Under the pieces are notes generated by a model, which had not been told where the DNA came from, did no database searches, and was given only the letters and a program-made list of their open reading frames with translations. From the NCBI GenBank assembly GCA_012646845.1, contig GCA_012646845.1_4707.2: DNA of 44,786 nt. One strand, given 5' to 3'. Shown one piece after another: positions 2,662 through 14,196 of the stretch (position 1 is its first letter; each line of letters starts with the position of its first letter). The translations under genes were made by a program, and so were the position numbers. This DNA comes from a phage.

Positions 2662-3060
2662 TTATGCTTCGCAATCAGCTGAAGGCGTCGCGCCTTTCTT
2701 ACCAACGATACGCCAAATCCGACACGCTGGGTAATGGTTAACCTCTAGAGAGCAAGGAATGTTATATTTCTCTTCCAGCGCATAAAGACATTTCGTTAGC
2801 TGCTCCAGCGCGTTCTCGTCGTGTCGTAACGCGTGGTGGCCTAATCGATGTTGGTCGTTCTTTATATACGCCTCGAAGAGAACATGTTGGCGATGTACGC
2901 TGACGTTTACAGCCTCGAGTATAGCTTGGTCGAGCATACGACTAAAGCACATCAACGAGTCAGATACGTTTTCTCGCTTAACCAGATCGATCATGGCGGG
3001 AATATACGAATGGTCGATGTTATCGATGACCGCTTTAGCGACGGAATCCGCAATGTTCAT
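2662..3060 (-). CDS. hypothetical protein, tandem paralog 1 (132 aa)
   Basis: N-terminus MNIADSVAKAVIDNIDH... closely matches neighbour MSIVESIVKAVNDNIDH... Confidence 0.7.
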   Translation of the reverse strand: MNIADSVAKAVIDNIDHSYIPAMIDLVKRENVSDSLMCFSRMLDQAILEAVNVSVHRQHVLFEAYIKNDQHRLGHHALRHDENALEQLTKCLYALEEKYNIPCSLEVNHYPACRIWRIVGKKGATPSADCEA

Positions 3061-3095: not shown

Positions 3096-3491
3096 TTACT
3101 CTTTGACGTCGGTTGTTGTTTCGGTGTGTTTCTCGCTGCTGATGTACCAGAGCAGGTACGCTGGGAAAAGATTGACCTCTAAGCTAAATGGGGTATTGTA
3201 TTTCTCTTCCATTTTACAGAGATGTTCTTTAAGTAAATTTCTCGCGTCACTATCACCACGAACAGAGTGCCAGTCTAGTTCTTTGTTCTCCTTTACCAGG
3301 ACCTCTACGATGATACGTTGCTCGTGAACCTCGGTTTTCACAGTGAAAAGTAAATCGCTGCTATCAAAACGGGTAAAACGAATGTATGAACCAGGTGTTT
3401 TTTCTTGTTTAATAATATCGATCATGGTAGAAATGCGCGGATGATCGATGTTGTCGTTAACAGCTTTAACGATGGATTCTACAATGCTCAT
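3096..3491 (-). CDS. hypothetical protein, tandem paralog 2 (131 aa)
   Basis: Shared N-terminal and central motifs (EEKYN.P.SLEVN) with 2662..3060. Confidence 0.7.
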   Translation of the reverse strand: MSIVESIVKAVNDNIDHPRISTMIDIIKQEKTPGSYIRFTRFDSSDLLFTVKTEVHEQRIIVEVLVKENKELDWHSVRGDSDARNLLKEHLCKMEEKYNTPFSLEVNLFPAYLLWYISSEKHTETTTDVKE

Positions 3492-7283: not shown

Positions 7284-8585
7284 TTAACTAATATAAAGTT
7301 CAGGATCGTAAGGCGCTAACGATACACTGGCGTTATGCATTGCTTTCATCATAGTGTTCATGAAAACGTTGTTTACACCGGTGATCTCTGCCCCGATCGC
7401 GTCTGGGGTTGGAGCCATCGCGTTACCGCAACAGGTAGCACAGTATTCCAACGGACCCGCTTTACAGCGTTGAGGATCGCGTAACTTGATGGTTTGTCCT
7501 TCCAAGGAAGCGAATAATTCAGCATCAATAAGTTTAAGCGCTGCGCCGTCGATCATGTAACGGCCGACAAGTAGCTTATCTTTGATGTGGTCGCGGTTTA
7601 CCGTGAACAGAATATGTTCTTGGGTGCCGCAGTCGTCCATCGTGATTTTAAGGTTCTGTGTTGCACGTTGCGATTCTTTAGCCGTTTGTCCGGCTAAAGC
7701 GGTCAACGCACCACGTGAGAACGAACCAGCACGTGCACTGTTGTTGTACTCCGCCCAATGGTCGACGCGCATCCCTTCGGCCAGGCTGTGTGTGATAACG
7801 TTACGTTTACCAGGGTCAACGAAGTCGGCTTCAACCCCCATCATGATGTGCGTTTTCTTTCGAGTATTACCGAAACTCTTACCGGGGTTAATATAGAACC
7901 CTTCCGATTCATCGCCCTTAAAGGATTCCTTATCCATTTTGGTTAGCGTGGCTTCGAGTTTGATCAGTTCTTCAGGGGTGAACTTACCTTCCTCTTGTAA
8001 GCGTGCCAACTCTTTATCACGATAGGCAATAATATCATCATCGACCGTTAACGCTTTATCGCTCATTGAAGGCACAATTAAGCGGTTGATAGCGGTTAAT
8101 GCGCTGATATTGTTGGTGAATTTCTTCACTTCGCTTGCGTACAGCGGACCAATCGGACGCTCGTTAGGATCGGGTATTCCCTCTTCGGGATCATCTGCTA
8201 CGCGCGGCGCAATCAGCGATTCTAGTGTGCCGCTGGTTAACCGTCCTGCCTGATATTCAATCTGAATACCGAAAGCGTCATAAAGGACGTACATATTGAA
8301 CAACGCTTCACCGAAGGTTGTGGTGGTTGTGTTCTTAACCGACGGTAGATCGCCAGGCGCAAGCTCCAACGGATCCCAGAAATTCAACAAGGGTTTTGTT
8401 GGTTCTGTTTCCCATTGGTGTTCTTCACCGTCGATGGTAACCGTAACGATGTTACCTTGACGACGTAATTTAGGCTGATACTTCTCAGCGCCCCCTTCCG
8501 TAAAAGCAAATGCGTCGTTAATCCACTCAAGATAACGGTAATGCCCTTCACGCAACGCGTAAAGGAAATAATCACGAGGTGTCAT
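7284..8585 (-). CDS. hypothetical protein (433 aa) with C-terminal Cys cluster (CATCCGNA)
   Basis: ORF track; long uninterrupted frame. Confidence 0.7.
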   Translation of the reverse strand: MTPRDYFLYALREGHYRYLEWINDAFAFTEGGAEKYQPKLRRQGNIVTVTIDGEEHQWETEPTKPLLNFWDPLELAPGDLPSVKNTTTTTFGEALFNMYVLYDAFGIQIEYQAGRLTSGTLESLIAPRVADDPEEGIPDPNERPIGPLYASEVKKFTNNISALTAINRLIVPSMSDKALTVDDDIIAYRDKELARLQEEGKFTPEELIKLEATLTKMDKESFKGDESEGFYINPGKSFGNTRKKTHIMMGVEADFVDPGKRNVITHSLAEGMRVDHWAEYNNSARAGSFSRGALTALAGQTAKESQRATQNLKITMDDCGTQEHILFTVNRDHIKDKLLVGRYMIDGAALKLIDAELFASLEGQTIKLRDPQRCKAGPLEYCATCCGNAMAPTPDAIGAEITGVNNVFMNTMMKAMHNASVSLAPYDPELYIS

Positions 8586-8598
8586 GTAACAACTCCTT

Positions 8599-9477
8599 TT
8601 AAACGTGGGTCAGGTCACCGTGACGTGAAACGAACTCTGATAACGCTCGGGTTGCTTCTTTGGATTCTTCAGCCATCGGGAAGTTTGCGGTAATAAGTTC
8701 TCGTAAGACAGGGACGAGTTCGTTATCTTCGAGATCAGAAGCTAAAGCGAATGCAATCAGTTCTTGGGTGTATGCATACGGTTGCTGACGTAATGCAGCA
8801 AGCTGATCCCGACACTGCGACATGAGCAGGTCCAGTGGAACCGCTATTGTACCCCCTTCATCAATATACTGACCGAATACCGGTGGGAACGCATCGCTGA
8901 TTACACGAATTCGTCGACGGATGCGATCGGGAATCTGGACGTTTTCTTCGTCGGCGATATTTTCGCTGTCTTTCTCCAGCTTCTTGGTCAGCACCTGCTG
9001 AATGCGTGGGAGTAAGCTTGAATGTACGAAACCGATTAGTGATGTTACACCCACAGCATCGACACCGTAAATATAATGCGCGCATTCCGCTAGCGCTTCA
9101 GCTGCGGTGTAGTCTTCATCTTCAACGATAGCGAGTAGAAAAGCGGTATCGTCATGCGTTTCCAGGTCTAATAACGTAGACGCCAGTGCATGAAGATATT
9201 TCAGGCTATCCAGAGATAGTTGCCCTTCGTTAATTCGGATCCCGAAGGCAAGCAATTGTTGTTTATAAAGTTCGATACACCCGTTTGTTAAAATGATATC
9301 GAGTTCGTTTAAATCGTATTGTTCCCCAGCACCTGACAACATCGTACTACAAAACGTTTCCAGTTGCCCGCATTTAAAATCTTGATATAAACGATACATG
9401 CAATGCTGTAACAGCGTACGCCTTGTTTCAGGGATCTTACCTTCTAACAAAGCCAAGACGGAATCAATCATATCCAC
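8599..9477 (-). CDS. hypothetical protein (292 aa)
   Basis: ORF track. Confidence 0.7.
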   Translation of the reverse strand: MDMIDSVLALLEGKIPETRRTLLQHCMYRLYQDFKCGQLETFCSTMLSGAGEQYDLNELDIILTNGCIELYKQQLLAFGIRINEGQLSLDSLKYLHALASTLLDLETHDDTAFLLAIVEDEDYTAAEALAECAHYIYGVDAVGVTSLIGFVHSSLLPRIQQVLTKKLEKDSENIADEENVQIPDRIRRRIRVISDAFPPVFGQYIDEGGTIAVPLDLLMSQCRDQLAALRQQPYAYTQELIAFALASDLEDNELVPVLRELITANFPMAEESKEATRALSEFVSRHGDLTHV

Positions 9478-9567
9478 TCCGATGCGGTAAATGTCTACTA
9501 GCTCTCATAATCTATTGAAGAAACTACCAGCTTACGCCAACTTAGATTAATCAGGAGTAACCATCCC

Positions 9568-10041
9568 ATGCCAGTTTCATCCAAACCAAGAAAGAAATCA
9601 GTAGGAAAACCTAAAGCTCAGGAAACAACAGCGATTCGTTGGGACGAGTTACGTGAACCTATCGAAAACTGCGAATTGTTATTAGGCACCCTGGGTGCGG
9701 CTATTTACCAAGCGACACAACCCTGTCGTTTACGATTAACCCAAAACAAGCGTGATGAGTTCGTTGCGTTATCAACAAGTACGAATAAAGATCTGACCGA
9801 ACTTCAAACCGAGTTGACGACGATCAAGAACTCCATTACGCCGATGTATGGTAAAGAAGTCGATGAACAAAGTATTCTGTTACAGTACAACTACGGGATG
9901 TCGTTAATGAATATCCTGGAACGTGCATCCGATATTCTGCGTCCTGACGTTGCACGCCTGAGCCAACTGCGTGTTGAAGGGATGGAGAACCAGATCCGAT
10001 TCGCTAACAGTGTTAAATCTCAAGGAGCCACCGAAGCATGA
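9568..10041 (+). CDS. hypothetical protein (157 aa)
   Basis: ORF track; AGGAG RBS upstream; stop overlaps next start (ATGA). Confidence 0.65.
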   Translation: MPVSSKPRKKSVGKPKAQETTAIRWDELREPIENCELLLGTLGAAIYQATQPCRLRLTQNKRDEFVALSTSTNKDLTELQTELTTIKNSITPMYGKEVDEQSILLQYNYGMSLMNILERASDILRPDVARLSQLRVEGMENQIRFANSVKSQGATEA

Positions 10042-11696
10042 GCGAACAAGAAAAAGAAGTCGTGACGAATCAGGAAGCCATTGAGCCTTCAGAGTCGTCC
10101 GTTGAAACAATGATTCCAGCAAGTGAGGGTAAAGACGAAGCTGTCACTACCGAAGGAGATGTAGCGGCTCCAGAAGCAACCCGTGAAGAAGAACCATCGC
10201 ATCCACCGCTGGTCGATTTCTCGAAGGCGACGATACGTTTCCAATGCGAAGACATTCGTCCTAAGAGTCCGAAGAAAACAAAACGTCAGCCGTTGGTGTT
10301 ACCGCTGTATTCTCCGCGTGTACAGACAGCGTATTACAAGGAATACATCAACGAAGCAATGGATACCGTGCAAGCCATTGTCGCTCAACGCGGTAAACCT
10401 TCGGACGAGCAATTTGATAAATTCAGTAAAGCGGTAGTGCAATCGGTTGCTGATGGGCAATACCAACCGCGTGGGCCAGCTCATGATCGTGCGTTGGAAC
10501 GTAAGGGTAGTCAGTGGACTAACGTACCCGTAGACTCATCGGGTGTTGGTCGTGTTATTCCTGGCATCCCACAACCGAACCATATTCCTGATGATGTCGA
10601 AGCGCCGTTGACAGGAACCGATGCGATCTATTTTGCTATCCGCAATACGAAATCGGGCGCACCTGCGGTAATGCCGTTATGGCATAGCGGTATTAAGCTG
10701 CAGTTCAATCCACCGTCAAATGAACGTGTTGCGATTATGCATGAACGTATCGCACGTGATAAAATCCTGGGTGGACGTGATAGTACCGGTTTCCTGTTTT
10801 CGGCAACCTCGATTATCACCATGAAGCATGCTATCGAATTAGCGTTAGAATGCTGTTACATGGCCAACGTACCGAACCTGGATATCCAGCGTTTGAAAGA
10901 CATTATTCCGGTTACCGATGTTCCAGCGTTATTGTTGAACGTGCTGGTAACCATGTACCCGTACGGCTATCCTTACGTACAGACCTGCTATCAGAATCCA
11001 GAAACCTGCGACTATCGTGTTGAAGATACCGTAAGCTTTGCGAAGCTCTATCAAGTTGACAACAGCGCAATTACCAAACGTATGCGACAGATCATGACCG
11101 AAGGTCCGGTCATGACAGATGAACTTTTGCGTGAGTATGCAAACGAGCTGGGCGAAACAAACTCCCGTACGCTGGATCTGTCTGACAACGGTTCGGTTAT
11201 CATTGAGCTTGAAGTACCGAAGATTTCACGTCAGATTGCCATGGGTGAACGCTGGTTAAGTGATACCCTGGAAGATCTGCGTGATATTCTATCGCGTCCG
11301 TCAATGACCGAAGAAGAGCGTGATCGTGTTATTCGTGAGCGTCAGTTCTATAGCTGGATGCGTCAATATGATGCGTGGATCAAATCGATGCATGTGTCGG
11401 TAAACGGCACCATGCGTCGTGTAAGCGATGCAGATACGGCAACGGTATTAGCACAGCTGTCTCGTGATAGCGACCTTCGTGAACGCTATATCGATGGGTT
11501 GATGCAGTTCATCGGTGATTCGACGATTGCGCTCGCAGCGATGCCTGCCTGGAAATGTCCGAAATGTAATACCGATATTGCTGACAATCTGCGTGACCAG
11601 AAATACTACGATCTGATTGCTTTGGATGTACCCCAGCTTTTTTTTACCCTAAACTCCGTCCAATCTCTTCAGGAGGGGATGGACGCGGTATTCTAA
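10038..11696 (+). CDS. hypothetical protein (552 aa), acidic low-complexity N-terminus
   Basis: ORF track; translationally coupled to upstream gene; T8 run 17 codons before stop. Confidence 0.75.
   Translation: MSEQEKEVVTNQEAIEPSESSVETMIPASEGKDEAVTTEGDVAAPEATREEEPSHPPLVDFSKATIRFQCEDIRPKSPKKTKRQPLVLPLYSPRVQTAYYKEYINEAMDTVQAIVAQRGKPSDEQFDKFSKAVVQSVADGQYQPRGPAHDRALERKGSQWTNVPVDSSGVGRVIPGIPQPNHIPDDVEAPLTGTDAIYFAIRNTKSGAPAVMPLWHSGIKLQFNPPSNERVAIMHERIARDKILGGRDSTGFLFSATSIITMKHAIELALECCYMANVPNLDIQRLKDIIPVTDVPALLLNVLVTMYPYGYPYVQTCYQNPETCDYRVEDTVSFAKLYQVDNSAITKRMRQIMTEGPVMTDELLREYANELGETNSRTLDLSDNGSVIIELEVPKISRQIAMGERWLSDTLEDLRDILSRPSMTEEERDRVIRERQFYSWMRQYDAWIKSMHVSVNGTMRRVSDADTATVLAQLSRDSDLRERYIDGLMQFIGDSTIALAAMPAWKCPKCNTDIADNLRDQKYYDLIALDVPQLFFTLNSVQSLQEGMDAVF
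11639..11645 (+). other. T TTT TTT slippery heptamer (candidate -1 frameshift site)
   Basis: Heptamer is in X_XXY_YYZ register in the 0 frame of 10038..11696; the -1 frame is open from 11597 through 12118. Confidence 0.3.
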
Positions 11697-11788
11697 TCGA
11701 TCCGCGATACGGGTTACACGACGGACAACTTGTTCGTAATGATGAAAAAATCTGGGAATTGCTGTTAGCGCGTAAAGGCGACGGTGGC

Positions 11789-12118
11789 ATGAAACTGAAC
11801 ATCGAAATGGGTATTGCGTACGATACCATGTTTGGCATGTATGATCGTGTTAACGACTGGACGCCGTTGAAATGGGTTGCTCAGCACCCCGCTGAAGATC
11901 CCTGGGACAGATTAGGGATTAAGCCCTTAATCGAGGATTATGTTCGATTCGGTATTAAAGAGTTCATGACGCTGGATGCGTTTTTACAAGCACCGTATCC
12001 TTACGCGCAAACGGTACTCAAAATCGCACAAGACGAACTGCGGAAACGTAGTGCGGTACTGGACGACGATGAGGACAAGTTACGACGAGAAGAAGAACGT
12101 TTACGAAACGGAAAATAA
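11789..12118 (+). CDS. hypothetical protein or frameshift extension of 10038..11696
   Basis: Track ORF begins with TTG at 11759; first ATG at 11789; frame continuous with -1 frame of upstream gene. Confidence 0.45.
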   Translation: MKLNIEMGIAYDTMFGMYDRVNDWTPLKWVAQHPAEDPWDRLGIKPLIEDYVRFGIKEFMTLDAFLQAPYPYAQTVLKIAQDELRKRSAVLDDDEDKLRREEERLRNGK

Positions 12119-12119
12119 A

Positions 12120-12629
12120 ATGGCGAGATTTACCAGTTTGATTGGGTTGGATATTTGGGAAACACCGGCTGACGTTCGGGTTATTCCTGTCAACACCGTC
12201 GGTGTGATGGGGCGTGGTCTTGCCAAGCAGGCAGCTGATCGTGTACCCGGTCTTCTTGAAGCGTACCGTAAGCAATGTCGAGATGGGTTTAAGGTGGGCG
12301 AAGTCGTATCGTATCAACATGGCGATAACGATCAACTCACCTACGTGTTGTTTCCATCAAAATCGGATTGGCGTGAAAGAACACGGCGCGAGTATATCGT
12401 TAACGGTTTACTGGCGTTAAAAGCGTGGTTATTGGAGCTTCAGTTCGAAAGAGACGGCTTCTCATACCACCGTCCGGCTGAACCACTGATTGTCGCAATT
12501 CCTCCGGTTGGTTCTGGTTGCGGTAATATCGGTTACGGACAATCCGAGACAATCCAGCCTCAATGGGTACGCGCACAAATCAAACAGTATCTTGCCACCG
12601 TGCCAAACGTTCATTTCTACTTGTTCTAA
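12120..12629 (+). CDS. macro-domain protein (putative ADP-ribose binding/hydrolase)
   Basis: ATG at 12120; motifs VIPVNTVGVMGRGLAKQAADRVPG and IAIPPVGSGCGNIGYG resemble macro-domain glycine-rich loops. Confidence 0.7.
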   Translation: MARFTSLIGLDIWETPADVRVIPVNTVGVMGRGLAKQAADRVPGLLEAYRKQCRDGFKVGEVVSYQHGDNDQLTYVLFPSKSDWRERTRREYIVNGLLALKAWLLELQFERDGFSYHRPAEPLIVAIPPVGSGCGNIGYGQSETIQPQWVRAQIKQYLATVPNVHFYLF

Positions 12630-12639
12630 TGCAAAGATA

Positions 12640-12687
12640 GCATAACCCTCCTCCTGGCCTGAACCAGGAGGAAGGGTGTTTTTATGC
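12640..12687. terminator. Bidirectional terminator hairpin between convergent genes
   Basis: GCATAA-CCCTCCTCCTGG-CCTGAA-CCAGGAGGAAGGGTG-TTTTTATGC; perfect extended inverted repeat. Confidence 0.65.
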
Positions 12688-14196
12688 CGCGAAGGTTGGC
12701 TTGTTGCTGGCTTCCCAGGCGGTAGCACCGGTGTCGAAATCGGCATGTTCTGTTACGTTGGAGACGTTCCAACCGGAGATATCCTGGTTGAACGCCTTTG
12801 CGTCCTCAAACATGCTCCGCATCGAAACAATATTAGACATGTTCCAGCTACCGATGTTCTGGTTGAACACAACAGCACTACGGAACATGCGATCGGCATT
12901 CGTTACGTTCGACATATCCCAACCGATGACGTTAGGATCGTTGAACTTCGAACAGCCTAAGAACATCGAGTTGGTGCTGGTGACAGCAGTAGGCAGCTCT
13001 GCCGGGACCGACGTCAGGTTGCTAGCACGTTCGAATGACCAGTTACGGACATCATTCTGTTTCCCGAAGCTCAGAACCGCGAGCAGCGCGTTACCGCCGA
13101 GGTTGATTTTCAGGGATTTAAGTCCGCTCTCTTTCCAACCAATCTCGATGCGACCGGCTTGCGTAACGTCGATGCCCGTATTCGCACCTTCGACAACGTC
13201 TACCTTCACATTGTCGTACGAGAGACGATACCAGAGTTCTGGGTCGACGCCGCCGGTAAGAGGAATATCACCATCGCCCAATGGCACGTCAAACGTGTCG
13301 GAGATAACAGAAAGATCCAGCGCACCCGGCTGCACGGTAGCGGTGAAGTAGGTGAAGTCCTCTGGCTCGGTCACGACCTCATGGTAGCGAAGATACACAT
13401 CGCCAGCCCAAGATTCCGTTTCGGCGTAATCCGTGCTAAGATGCACTGCCTTGTATCCGTCATCAAGGTCGTGCACGGCGATTACATACGCATATTCGAG
13501 CAACGTCGCGAACTCAGTGCGGGTGGTTTCATCGTACCCACCCGCTGAGACCAGACGGTCGATAATGTCGTTACGTAACGCATCATCGATAGCGGCACCG
13601 ATTTCCATCGTCGCCACGTTGTGCTTCGCGACGATCTCATCCCAATCTAACGACAGCGACAGCAGACTCAATGAGGCAAGAGAGTCGCTGTTGTGTAAAT
13701 AGTTGAGTGTATAAAGGTCGGTTTTAGCGATGATGGTCACCAGGTCCAACGTATCGTTGGCGACGGTGAACTTGAGTTTACCTGCCCATACGTAGGAGGC
13801 ATCCGCTGCGTTAAGTTCGAGTTCCTTAACGCCGCTGTCTTCAAAGGTCACTGCGGTTTGCAGATCGGCTTCCAAGAAGTCAACGGTTTTGTCTAACGAC
13901 ACCCCATACCGTGCAGCTAACTGATCGACCACAGCGCCGATGGTGGTATCTGCGTTAACGATGAAGCGCAGAGGAAGACCCAGGAAGTTCTTGGTAAGAT
14001 CTCGGCGAACATAGACCAGGGTTTGTTCGTTGAAGTAGGGGCTACCCTCTAACGGTTTGATGCGGACACTCACCGCATCTGTAGCGTCGTCCTTAGCGAC
14101 AAACTCAAACGTCACGTCCTGTTCGGTCAGCGTAAGCTGGTTCTTACTGTTAACCAGTTCCAGCAACTCATCTTTCCAGTGTTGTAATAACTTCAT
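12682..14196 (-). CDS. putative receptor-binding/tail fibre protein with C-terminal DUF285 (BspA-like) repeats
   Basis: C-terminal repeats GWDMSNVTNADRMF / FNQNIGSWNMSNIVSMRSMF / FNQDISGWNVSNVT; N-terminal domain shared with 15364..17976 and 23321..23848. Confidence 0.75.
   Translation of the reverse strand: MKLLQHWKDELLELVNSKNQLTLTEQDVTFEFVAKDDATDAVSVRIKPLEGSPYFNEQTLVYVRRDLTKNFLGLPLRFIVNADTTIGAVVDQLAARYGVSLDKTVDFLEADLQTAVTFEDSGVKELELNAADASYVWAGKLKFTVANDTLDLVTIIAKTDLYTLNYLHNSDSLASLSLLSLSLDWDEIVAKHNVATMEIGAAIDDALRNDIIDRLVSAGGYDETTRTEFATLLEYAYVIAVHDLDDGYKAVHLSTDYAETESWAGDVYLRYHEVVTEPEDFTYFTATVQPGALDLSVISDTFDVPLGDGDIPLTGGVDPELWYRLSYDNVKVDVVEGANTGIDVTQAGRIEIGWKESGLKSLKINLGGNALLAVLSFGKQNDVRNWSFERASNLTSVPAELPTAVTSTNSMFLGCSKFNDPNVIGWDMSNVTNADRMFRSAVVFNQNIGSWNMSNIVSMRSMFEDAKAFNQDISGWNVSNVTEHADFDTGATAWEASNKPTFAA

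Follow-up and report, generated by a model that had tools for sequence, protein, structure and literature searches.

A late, family-conserved gene cluster of a Goslar-like jumbo phage: core gene cg18 as a probable divergent relative of T4 gp26/gp51, next to an AdfM macrodomain gene

What kind of unit is a block of four plus-strand genes set into a minus-strand segment of a jumbo-phage genome? The block in question occupies positions 9568-12629 of a 44,786-nucleotide stretch of phage DNA (NCBI GenBank assembly GCA_012646845.1, contig GCA_012646845.1_4707.2; the whole stretch is referred to here as the window), and its genes, numbered 1 to 4 in the direction of reading, encode proteins of 157, 552, 109 and 169 amino acids (aa). 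A first-pass annotation, made from the sequence alone, took the block for an embedded island and possibly a separately regulated module of, for example, injected or anti-defence proteins. We find instead that genes 1-3 are a module conserved throughout the chimalliviruses around the core gene cg18 (gene 2), that the cg18 product probably carries an enlarged form of the four-cysteine (Cys4) domain of the T4 baseplate hub-assembly proteins gp26 and gp51, and that gene 4 belongs to the AdfM family of DarG2-like macrodomain proteins.

A megablast search with positions 9400-12700 identified Escherichia phage vB_EcoM_Goslar, a nucleus-forming jumbo phage (237 kb) of the family Chimalliviridae, at 95.6% nucleotide identity over 99% of the query. 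The four plus-strand genes correspond, in the same order, to Goslar gp080, gp081, gp082 and gp083 (NC_048170, 90361-93428), three of which are annotated there as 'hypothetical' and one as 'macro domain-containing'. The minus-strand neighbours, which match phrog_2962 and phrog_5038, fit a Goslar-like origin, and Goslar and the window also share the terminator and gp079 as divergent partner. The two differ in that the Goslar annotation gives the macro gene a longer, overlapping start, that the 552-aa protein departs from gp081 by a two-residue indel and 16 substitutions, and that nucleotide homology ends inside the terminator hairpin, at 12654.

All four genes are real. Their open reading frames (ORFs) are present, they match gp080-gp083, and the synonymous and non-synonymous codon differences from Goslar (10/1, 62/16, 6/2 and 21/3 for genes 1 to 4) show that purifying selection acts on each of them and that all evolve as proteins. 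Other long plus-strand ORFs of the window are antisense to longer minus-strand ORFs or have no PHROG match, with the HNH gene fragment at 37-723 as the exception, which bears out the earlier statement that these are the only convincing plus-strand genes besides the HNH element. An AGGAG site lies 10 nucleotides (nt) upstream of gene 1, an ATGA overlap joins genes 1 and 2, the start of gene 4 is one base past the stop of gene 3, and the 92-nt spacer between genes 2 and 3 contains no terminator-like site. On the left, the block is bounded as described by a divergent intergenic region, which spans 9478-9567 if the cg19 homologue begins at its upstream GTG (9477) and 9472-9567 if it begins at the ATG used in the Goslar annotation (9471). 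On the right stands a hairpin with a 13-bp stem followed by a T5 run (TTTTT), with a folding energy of about -30 kcal/mol and z-scores of -3.6 and -4.2 on the two strands; the Goslar annotation has a terminator at the same place. The first-pass annotation had called this terminator bidirectional: the strong hairpin is there, the canonical T-run is found on the plus strand alone, and action in both directions is plausible. These features support a discrete transcription unit extending from the divergent gap to the terminator, within which the four genes are probably co-transcribed.

Genomic islands are recognized by a patchy distribution, an atypical composition, bounding repeats or mobility genes. 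To place the cluster in its family, we compared the loci around homologues of the 552-aa protein in phiKZ, Xanthomonas phage LucasX, Erwinia phage pEa_SNUABM_54, PhiPA3 and Vibrio phage sm033. In each of these phages a gene for a subunit of the virion RNA polymerase (vRNAP) shares one strand with a gene of about 285 aa, and the diverging strand carries a small gene (114-206 aa), a gene of 495-564 aa and a second small gene (75-146 aa), after which the coding strand switches back; genes 1-3 thus hold their place and order across the family. In phiKZ the same divergent layout is formed by gp078-gp077-gp076.4 beside gp079 and the vRNAP subunit gp080, with gp077 orthologous to the 552-aa protein (24% identity, tblastn E 4e-28) and gp076.4 in the family of the 109-aa protein. 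The phiKZ locus differs in that its first small gene has no detectable sequence similarity to gene 1, that the N-terminal tails of the 552-aa protein family vary in length and sequence, and that it lacks a macro gene, AdfM being gp104, elsewhere in that genome. The core-genome study of Prichard et al. equates Goslar gp081, phiKZ gp077 and RAY gp267 as cg18, a 'hypothetical protein', and assigns it to block 3 together with cg19 (gp079) and cg20 (a vRNAP fragment); the gene for the 552-aa protein occupies this very position, divergent from cg19 and cg20. The GC content of the cluster (0.44-0.50) falls inside the window's range of 0.40-0.53, and no repeats flank it.

All four genes, the macro gene included, are also found in two further Goslar-like genomes, one at 87% protein identity (a 180-kb contig from the assembly of a Salmonella Panama isolate) and one at about 50% (a metagenome contig), and in both the macro gene follows gene 3. 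The macro gene is placed here only in the Goslar clade, where it would have joined the unit, and it alone within the cluster has a clade-specific location. Because synteny is kept family-wide, composition is ordinary and flanking repeats are absent, genes 1-3 are a family-wide module around core gene cg18 and not a foreign island. The first-pass annotation had itself named ordinary structural genes in conserved synteny as the outcome that would tell against an island, and this is essentially what the comparison returned for three of the four genes.

Separate regulation fared no better. In Goslar RNA sequencing at 30 min under ChmA knockdown, gp080-083 change by a log2 fold change of -3.1 to -4.7 (an 8- to 25-fold drop), much as do the major capsid protein gp041 (-4.0), the hub cap gp048 (-3.2) and the flanking structural genes gp077-079, and early genes range from +0.2 to +1.4. 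Since gp080-083 fall on ChmA knockdown like their flanking genes and the capsid gene, they belong to the nucleus-dependent, late class, and are neither early nor timed apart from their neighbours.

Having placed the cluster, we turn to its largest product. The 552-aa protein is a full-length member of the cg18 family (phrog_4585, E 1.8e-66 over residues 22-544), and tblastn with it found matches in 160 jumbo-phage records. Homologue searches with full-length or untrimmed cg18 yielded six close relatives only, probably because low-complexity N-termini dominated the candidate list, and trimming to the conserved core fixed this; the family comprises 1232 representatives of sequence clusters and, within the phage collection, is confined to chimallivirus-type jumbo phages. 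An AlphaFold2 (AF2) model of the protein (mean predicted local distance difference test score, pLDDT, 76; predicted template-modelling score 0.75) shows, in order, a disordered N-terminus, a helical region and the Cys4 domain discussed below. The acidic N-terminus noted in the first-pass annotation is confirmed, residues 1-61 holding 17 Asp and Glu against 3 Lys and Arg at a pLDDT below 50. Transposon-insertion sequencing (TnSeq) of phiKZ recorded 0 insertions in the 1602 bp of gp077 and 0 in the 243 bp of gp076.4 (PMC12676376), so that cg18 appears essential in that phage. We found no published function for cg18 or phiKZ gp077 in the literature searched; all 40 sampled phage records label it hypothetical, and one metagenomic homologue in BFVD bears an automatic 'baseplate protein' label. 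An identity with the Imp import factors was considered and rejected, Imp1-4 and Imp6 being other phiKZ genes.

Several lines of evidence connect cg18 with gp26 and gp51 of phage T4, which both belong to PF12322 (216 and 178 bits). Both act in T4 as chaperones of hub assembly; gp51, an essential protein, is missing from the particle, and gp26 was long reported as a low-copy hub component (PMC3004832). A Foldseek search of BFVD with the cg18 model returned chimallivirus orthologues first and then models of 226-312 aa labelled 'Baseplate hub assembly protein, bacteriophage T4-like' or 'baseplate hub subunit' (E 8e-5 to 4e-2, probabilities 0.97-1.0, target TM-scores 0.44-0.57), so that cg18, compared model against model, resembles PF12322 members in predicted fold. 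For a comparison at the level of sequence profiles, a database search from T4 gp26 gave close relatives only, and diverse gp26/gp51 sequences were taken from annotated T4-like phages instead; a profile of 184 cg18 sequences was then aligned with one of 13 gp26/gp51 sequences. The resulting hhalign match (Prob 82.4%, P 9.9e-6, score 47) lies below the usual 95% bar, with a template of 13 sequences, and stands well above its controls, a reversed template scoring 15 and 20 column-shuffled templates 11-20, at probabilities of at most 0.7%. At a relaxed threshold the alignment joins cg18 221-539 to gp26 15-208, running over some 190 columns and covering gp26 almost completely. Within it, cg18 C317, C324, C507 and C510, which are 99% conserved in the 184 sequences, pair with gp26 C82, C84, C187 and C190, reproducing the PF12322 arrangement of a mid-domain pair and a CPxC motif near the C-terminus. 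The two proteins further have in common an N-terminal beta-beta-helix and a C-terminal strand-CPxC-FFxL element, and their genes are essential in both systems. Finally, 2 of 33 cg18 family members match phrog_150 ('baseplate hub') at E 0.002.

The differences between the two are also considerable. The window protein has 552 residues against 208-249, owing to an N-terminal extension of about 200 residues, made up of the acidic tail and helices, and to two insertions that are also helical; cg18 falls under every curated hidden Markov model threshold; and its gene does not adjoin hub genes. Taken together, the profile and model comparisons indicate that cg18 probably carries an enlarged gp26/gp51-type Cys4 domain, a judgement that we hold below near-certainty because no curated threshold is reached and the fold evidence compares one model with another. 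The link, which newly places cg18 in a known family as one of its divergent members, is moderately supported.

The product of gene 4 confirms the macro domain of the first-pass annotation: it scores 24.9 bits against Pfam Macro (PF01661; cut-off 22), matches the PADLOC DarG model at E 4.8e-22 and has Thermus aquaticus DarG (5M31/5M3E) as its best PDB match (E 8.5e-15), in an alignment that begins at residue 11. In a HMMER alignment its Asn25 (codon 12192-12194) and Lys81 (12360-12362) correspond to T. aquaticus DarG N22 and K80 (catalytic roles from PMC13309987). It is 98% identical to Goslar gp83, which was included, as sequence only, in an alignment of AdfM homologues (Morgan et al. 2026, PMC13309987). 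The same study reports that phiKZ gp104 (AdfM) strips DarT2-made ADP-ribose from DNA in vitro, that the AdfM proteins of three chimalliviruses localize to the phage nucleus and that loss of AdfM sensitizes phiKZ and PhiPA3 to DarTG2. Given that the DarG alignment starts at residue 11 and that phiKZ AdfM has 162 aa, the start at 12120 fits the macro gene better than the longer Goslar start or a 217-aa ORF. Gene 4 has in common with AdfM (phiKZ gp104) and the macrodomain of the bacterial antitoxin DarG2 its macrodomain fold, the catalytic Asn and Lys, and a length of about 165 aa without a DarT-binding domain; the activity, nuclear import and DarTG2 protection are known from the phiKZ and PhiPA3 proteins, and the genomic location differs from that in phiKZ. 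By homology, then, gene 4 would encode an anti-DarT2 factor that is imported into the phage nucleus and there strips DarT2-made ADP-ribose from phage DNA. The suggestion of anti-defence proteins accordingly holds, at this level, for one gene of the four; genes 1-3 have no PADLOC match and cg18 is a core gene.

Genes 1-3 likewise gave no match in Pfam or in PDB sequence searches. The gene 3 product aligns with those of the syntenic downstream genes of five phages (hhalign 96%, E 1.9e-9), has tblastn matches in Noxifer and PhiPA3, and is kept directly downstream of cg18 (PhiPA3 gp073, phiKZ gp076.4 and others). Gene 1 occupies the position of phiKZ gp078. Structure prediction, proposed earlier for both the 157-aa and the 552-aa protein, gave for the former a three-helix model (single-sequence AF2, pLDDT 81.6) in which a basic, disordered N-terminal tail of about 24 residues precedes three long helices (25-49, 59-93 and 100-156), and for the latter the gp26/gp51-like fold matches. 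Gene 1 either corresponds to the syntenic upstream genes in position only or is an orthologue of theirs that evolves very fast. A small-terminase role, taken from an unrelated gp77 mentioned in the PCH45 paper, was dropped, as nothing supports it. In the phiKZ TnSeq data (PMC12676376), gp078 has 6 insertion sites with 48 reads, far fewer than clearly dispensable genes, which suggests a fitness cost or polarity on gp077.

How do these parts combine? The explanation that we favour, with some confidence though well short of certainty, is a late unit in which cg18 acts as a gp26/gp51-like hub-assembly factor and gene 4 is AdfM. The unit would be read rightward from the gap that it shares with the vRNAP/cg19 genes and would stop at the hairpin 12645-12677. 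Its cg18 product, a greatly enlarged relative of gp26/gp51 stabilized by zinc through the Cys4 site, would be made after the phage nucleus forms and would help, in the cytoplasm, to assemble a T4-like central baseplate hub; the conserved 109-aa protein would be a probable partner in this, and the helical 157-aa protein a possible one. The Goslar hub closely resembles that of T4, according to the Goslar virion-structure paper, and both the lack of transposon insertions in phiKZ gp077 and the late expression class in Goslar are compatible with such a role.

A number of observations weigh against this explanation. At the sequence level, neither the window protein nor any of 33 family members hits PF12322 even at E 10; the profile-profile probability stays at 82%, short of 95%; gp26 and gp51 are less than half as large as cg18; and T4 gp26 and gp51 have no solved structure, so that the fold match is one of model to model. 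Between gene 1 and its syntenic counterparts in other chimalliviruses no homology could be detected, a four-sequence profile included (hhalign 1.5% and 2.7%), and AdfM activity has been demonstrated for phiKZ, not for Goslar-type proteins. A sigma-70-like site scan found no promoter in the divergent gap, and k-mer enrichment over 28 intergenic regions found no motif common to this gap and others; chimalliviruses use their own RNA polymerases, so that the sigma-70 scan is irrelevant to them. Among experimental data from relatives, the orthologue gp256 of the phiKZ-like phage Churi was detected by 15 min post infection and classed as non-virion, and phiKZ 077 is absent from the top-hit table of the antisense-oligonucleotide (ASO) screen despite its 0 transposon insertions. 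Virion mass spectrometry (MS) of Goslar (supplement of 10.64898/2026.04.21.720040) found gp081 with 24 peptides, 49% coverage and about 22 copies per virion, a number as compatible with packaging as with a chaperone that is retained. The same data contain one peptide of gp082, and gp080 and gp083 were not found. Across three adjacent core genes, the products vRNAP fragment, cg19 and cg18 have similar copy numbers (15-22), within or just above the range of vRNAP subunits overall (7-21); cg19, itself without known function, is a weak hit in the phiKZ ASO screen.

The MS result keeps in play the alternative that cg18 is packaged into the virion, travels along with the vRNAP and does its work during injection or immediately afterwards, for instance in the early infection vesicle, its likeness to gp26/gp51 being ancestry only or coincidence. 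In every chimallivirus examined the gene lies divergently beside a vRNAP subunit gene and cg19, the copies of gp081 (about 22) are close to those of gp078, the vRNAP subunit (about 21), and gp079 (about 15), the Churi orthologue is present at 15 min, and TnSeq makes the gene essential in phiKZ, all of which speaks for such a role. Presence in the MS data is no proof of a structural role, however, because the list also holds unexpected proteins at similar or higher levels, namely ChmC (about 76), thymidylate synthase (about 20) and a tail-fibre chaperone (about 52). Moreover, phiKZ gp077 bears no 'structural' note whereas gp079-081 do, Churi gp256 is classed as non-virion, and the main text of the Goslar virion-structure paper never names gp81, with 27 of the 28 modelled proteins listed separately. 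T4 gp26 was itself reported as a low-copy component of the hub, so that low-copy association with the virion separates neither reading from the other. We therefore regard packaging with the vRNAP as the less probable role, if one to be taken seriously. A wider role, in which cg18 would not be a passing chaperone only but would form, with its two small operon partners, an essential zinc-dependent factor specific to chimalliviruses that is kept in the particle at about vRNAP stoichiometry and acts again at infection, for example as a link from the tail hub or ejection apparatus to the co-injected transcription machinery or the early infection vesicle, is speculative and in our estimate a long shot; if true, it would explain both the fixed place of the gene beside vRNAP and cg19 and the large N-terminal extension of its product.

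Two further readings question the gp26/gp51 link or the cluster as a whole. The similarity could be an artefact of a Cys4 zinc ribbon present in unrelated folds, with cg18 having some other essential role peculiar to nucleus-forming phages, for example in replication, capsid docking or genome handling. A missing Pfam hit and the restriction of the family to chimallivirus-type phages in the phage collection would agree with this, as would single-sequence hhalign of cg18 with T4 gp26 or gp51, which reached 7-8% probability over the CPxC stretch only and left profiles necessary on both sides. Yet the profile alignment takes in the N-terminal beta-beta-helix among its columns and not the cysteines alone, controls of the same composition, Cys included, score far lower, and both Foldseek, which is independent of profiles, and the weak direct PHROG hit (phrog_150) arrive at the same family; we consider an artefact distinctly unlikely. 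The idea of an accessory island, separately acquired and regulated and coding for injected or anti-defence proteins, can point to a last gene of anti-defence type, to the location of the macro gene elsewhere in phiKZ (gp104), which implies movement during evolution, and to the variability among close relatives of the sequence just past the terminator. Against these stand the family-wide position of genes 1-3 with a core gene among them, a phiKZ gp077 that tolerates no insertions, unremarkable GC content without bounding repeats, an expression class identical to that of the neighbours and the lack of PADLOC matches in genes 1-3, and this reading is very improbable.

Table 1. Positions of the cluster, its boundaries and its minus-strand neighbours in the window, with the evidence for each.
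Feature	Position	Strand	Evidence
Gene 1, 157 aa (= Goslar gp080)	9568..10041	+	99.4% identical to Goslar
Gene 2, 552 aa (= Goslar gp081 = cg18 = phiKZ gp077)	10038..11696	+	phrog_4585; tblastn; core-gene table
Predicted gp26-like region of gene 2 (aa 221-539 vs T4 gp26 aa 15-208)	10698..11654	+	hhalign, Cys pairing, Foldseek
Conserved Cys codons of cg18: C317, C324, C507, C510	10986-10988, 11007-11009, 11556-11558, 11565-11567	+	
Spacer between genes 2 and 3, 92 nt	11697..11788	+	sequence read
Gene 3, 109 aa (= Goslar gp082, phrog_12109)	11789..12118	+	PHROG E 4.5e-9
Gene 4, 169 aa, AdfM macrodomain by homology (= Goslar gp083)	12120..12629	+	Pfam Macro, PADLOC DarG, PDB match
Divergent intergenic region, cg19 homologue (-) / gene 1 (+)	9472..9567	.	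AGGAG ribosome-binding site 9553-9557
Intrinsic terminator between convergent genes (hairpin 12645-12677, T-run 12679-12683)	12645..12685	+	fold, z-scores
vRNAP beta' fragment, multisubunit RNA polymerase (cg20, phiKZ gp080)	7284-8585	-	phrog_2962 E 7e-106; core-gene table
cg19 (phiKZ gp079)	8599-9471/9477	-	phrog_5038 E 7e-24; core-gene table

Beyond the terminator, between the macro gene and the gp084 homologue, lies a minus-strand ORF (12682-14196) for a 504-aa protein with a DUF7941 N-terminal module and DUF285/BspA-like repeats. Goslar has nothing at this place, and the segment 12654-14388 has no Goslar match even by sensitive blastn. Because DUF7941 proteins have been proposed to form baseplate-anchored host-recognition filaments, this segment resembles a receptor-binding cassette, either swapped in or added, whose recombination boundary falls at the terminator. 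The DUF285 region contains, at 12758-12868, a pair of direct repeats of 36 nt that lie 75 nt apart and are 72% identical, consistent with a repeat protein. On the other side of the cluster, about 955 extra bases separate the gp070 and gp080 homologues relative to the Goslar coordinates, and the minus-strand ORFs 2662-3060 (132 aa) and 3096-3491 (131 aa) seem to lack counterparts among the annotated Goslar genes. The 180-kb contig mentioned above (AAHLWB010000010.1), from the assembly of a Salmonella enterica serovar Panama isolate (GCA_007261085.1), represents a Goslar-like phage with an 87% identical cg18, and the cluster of a 96%-identical protein has 355 member sequences from public runs; Goslar-type phages thus seem to turn up often in bacterial isolate and metagenome data.

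The genes of this cluster, the core status of cg18 and AdfM itself have all been published, and the cluster is ordinary conserved phage genome, not a new system. Its interest lies in cg18, one of about 20 core genes that define the nucleus-forming jumbo phages and have no assigned function. A link to gp26/gp51 would give this gene a concrete role, and suggests that a gene regarded as chimallivirus-specific is an old myovirus morphogenesis gene and not part of the nucleus machinery. The T4 proteins gp26 and gp51 are themselves poorly understood, and a diverse family of more than 1200 clusters with an invariant Cys4 site could help to show how they act. The placement of the macro gene and its late, nucleus-dependent expression, in turn, extend the AdfM story to a phage of Escherichia coli, a tractable host.

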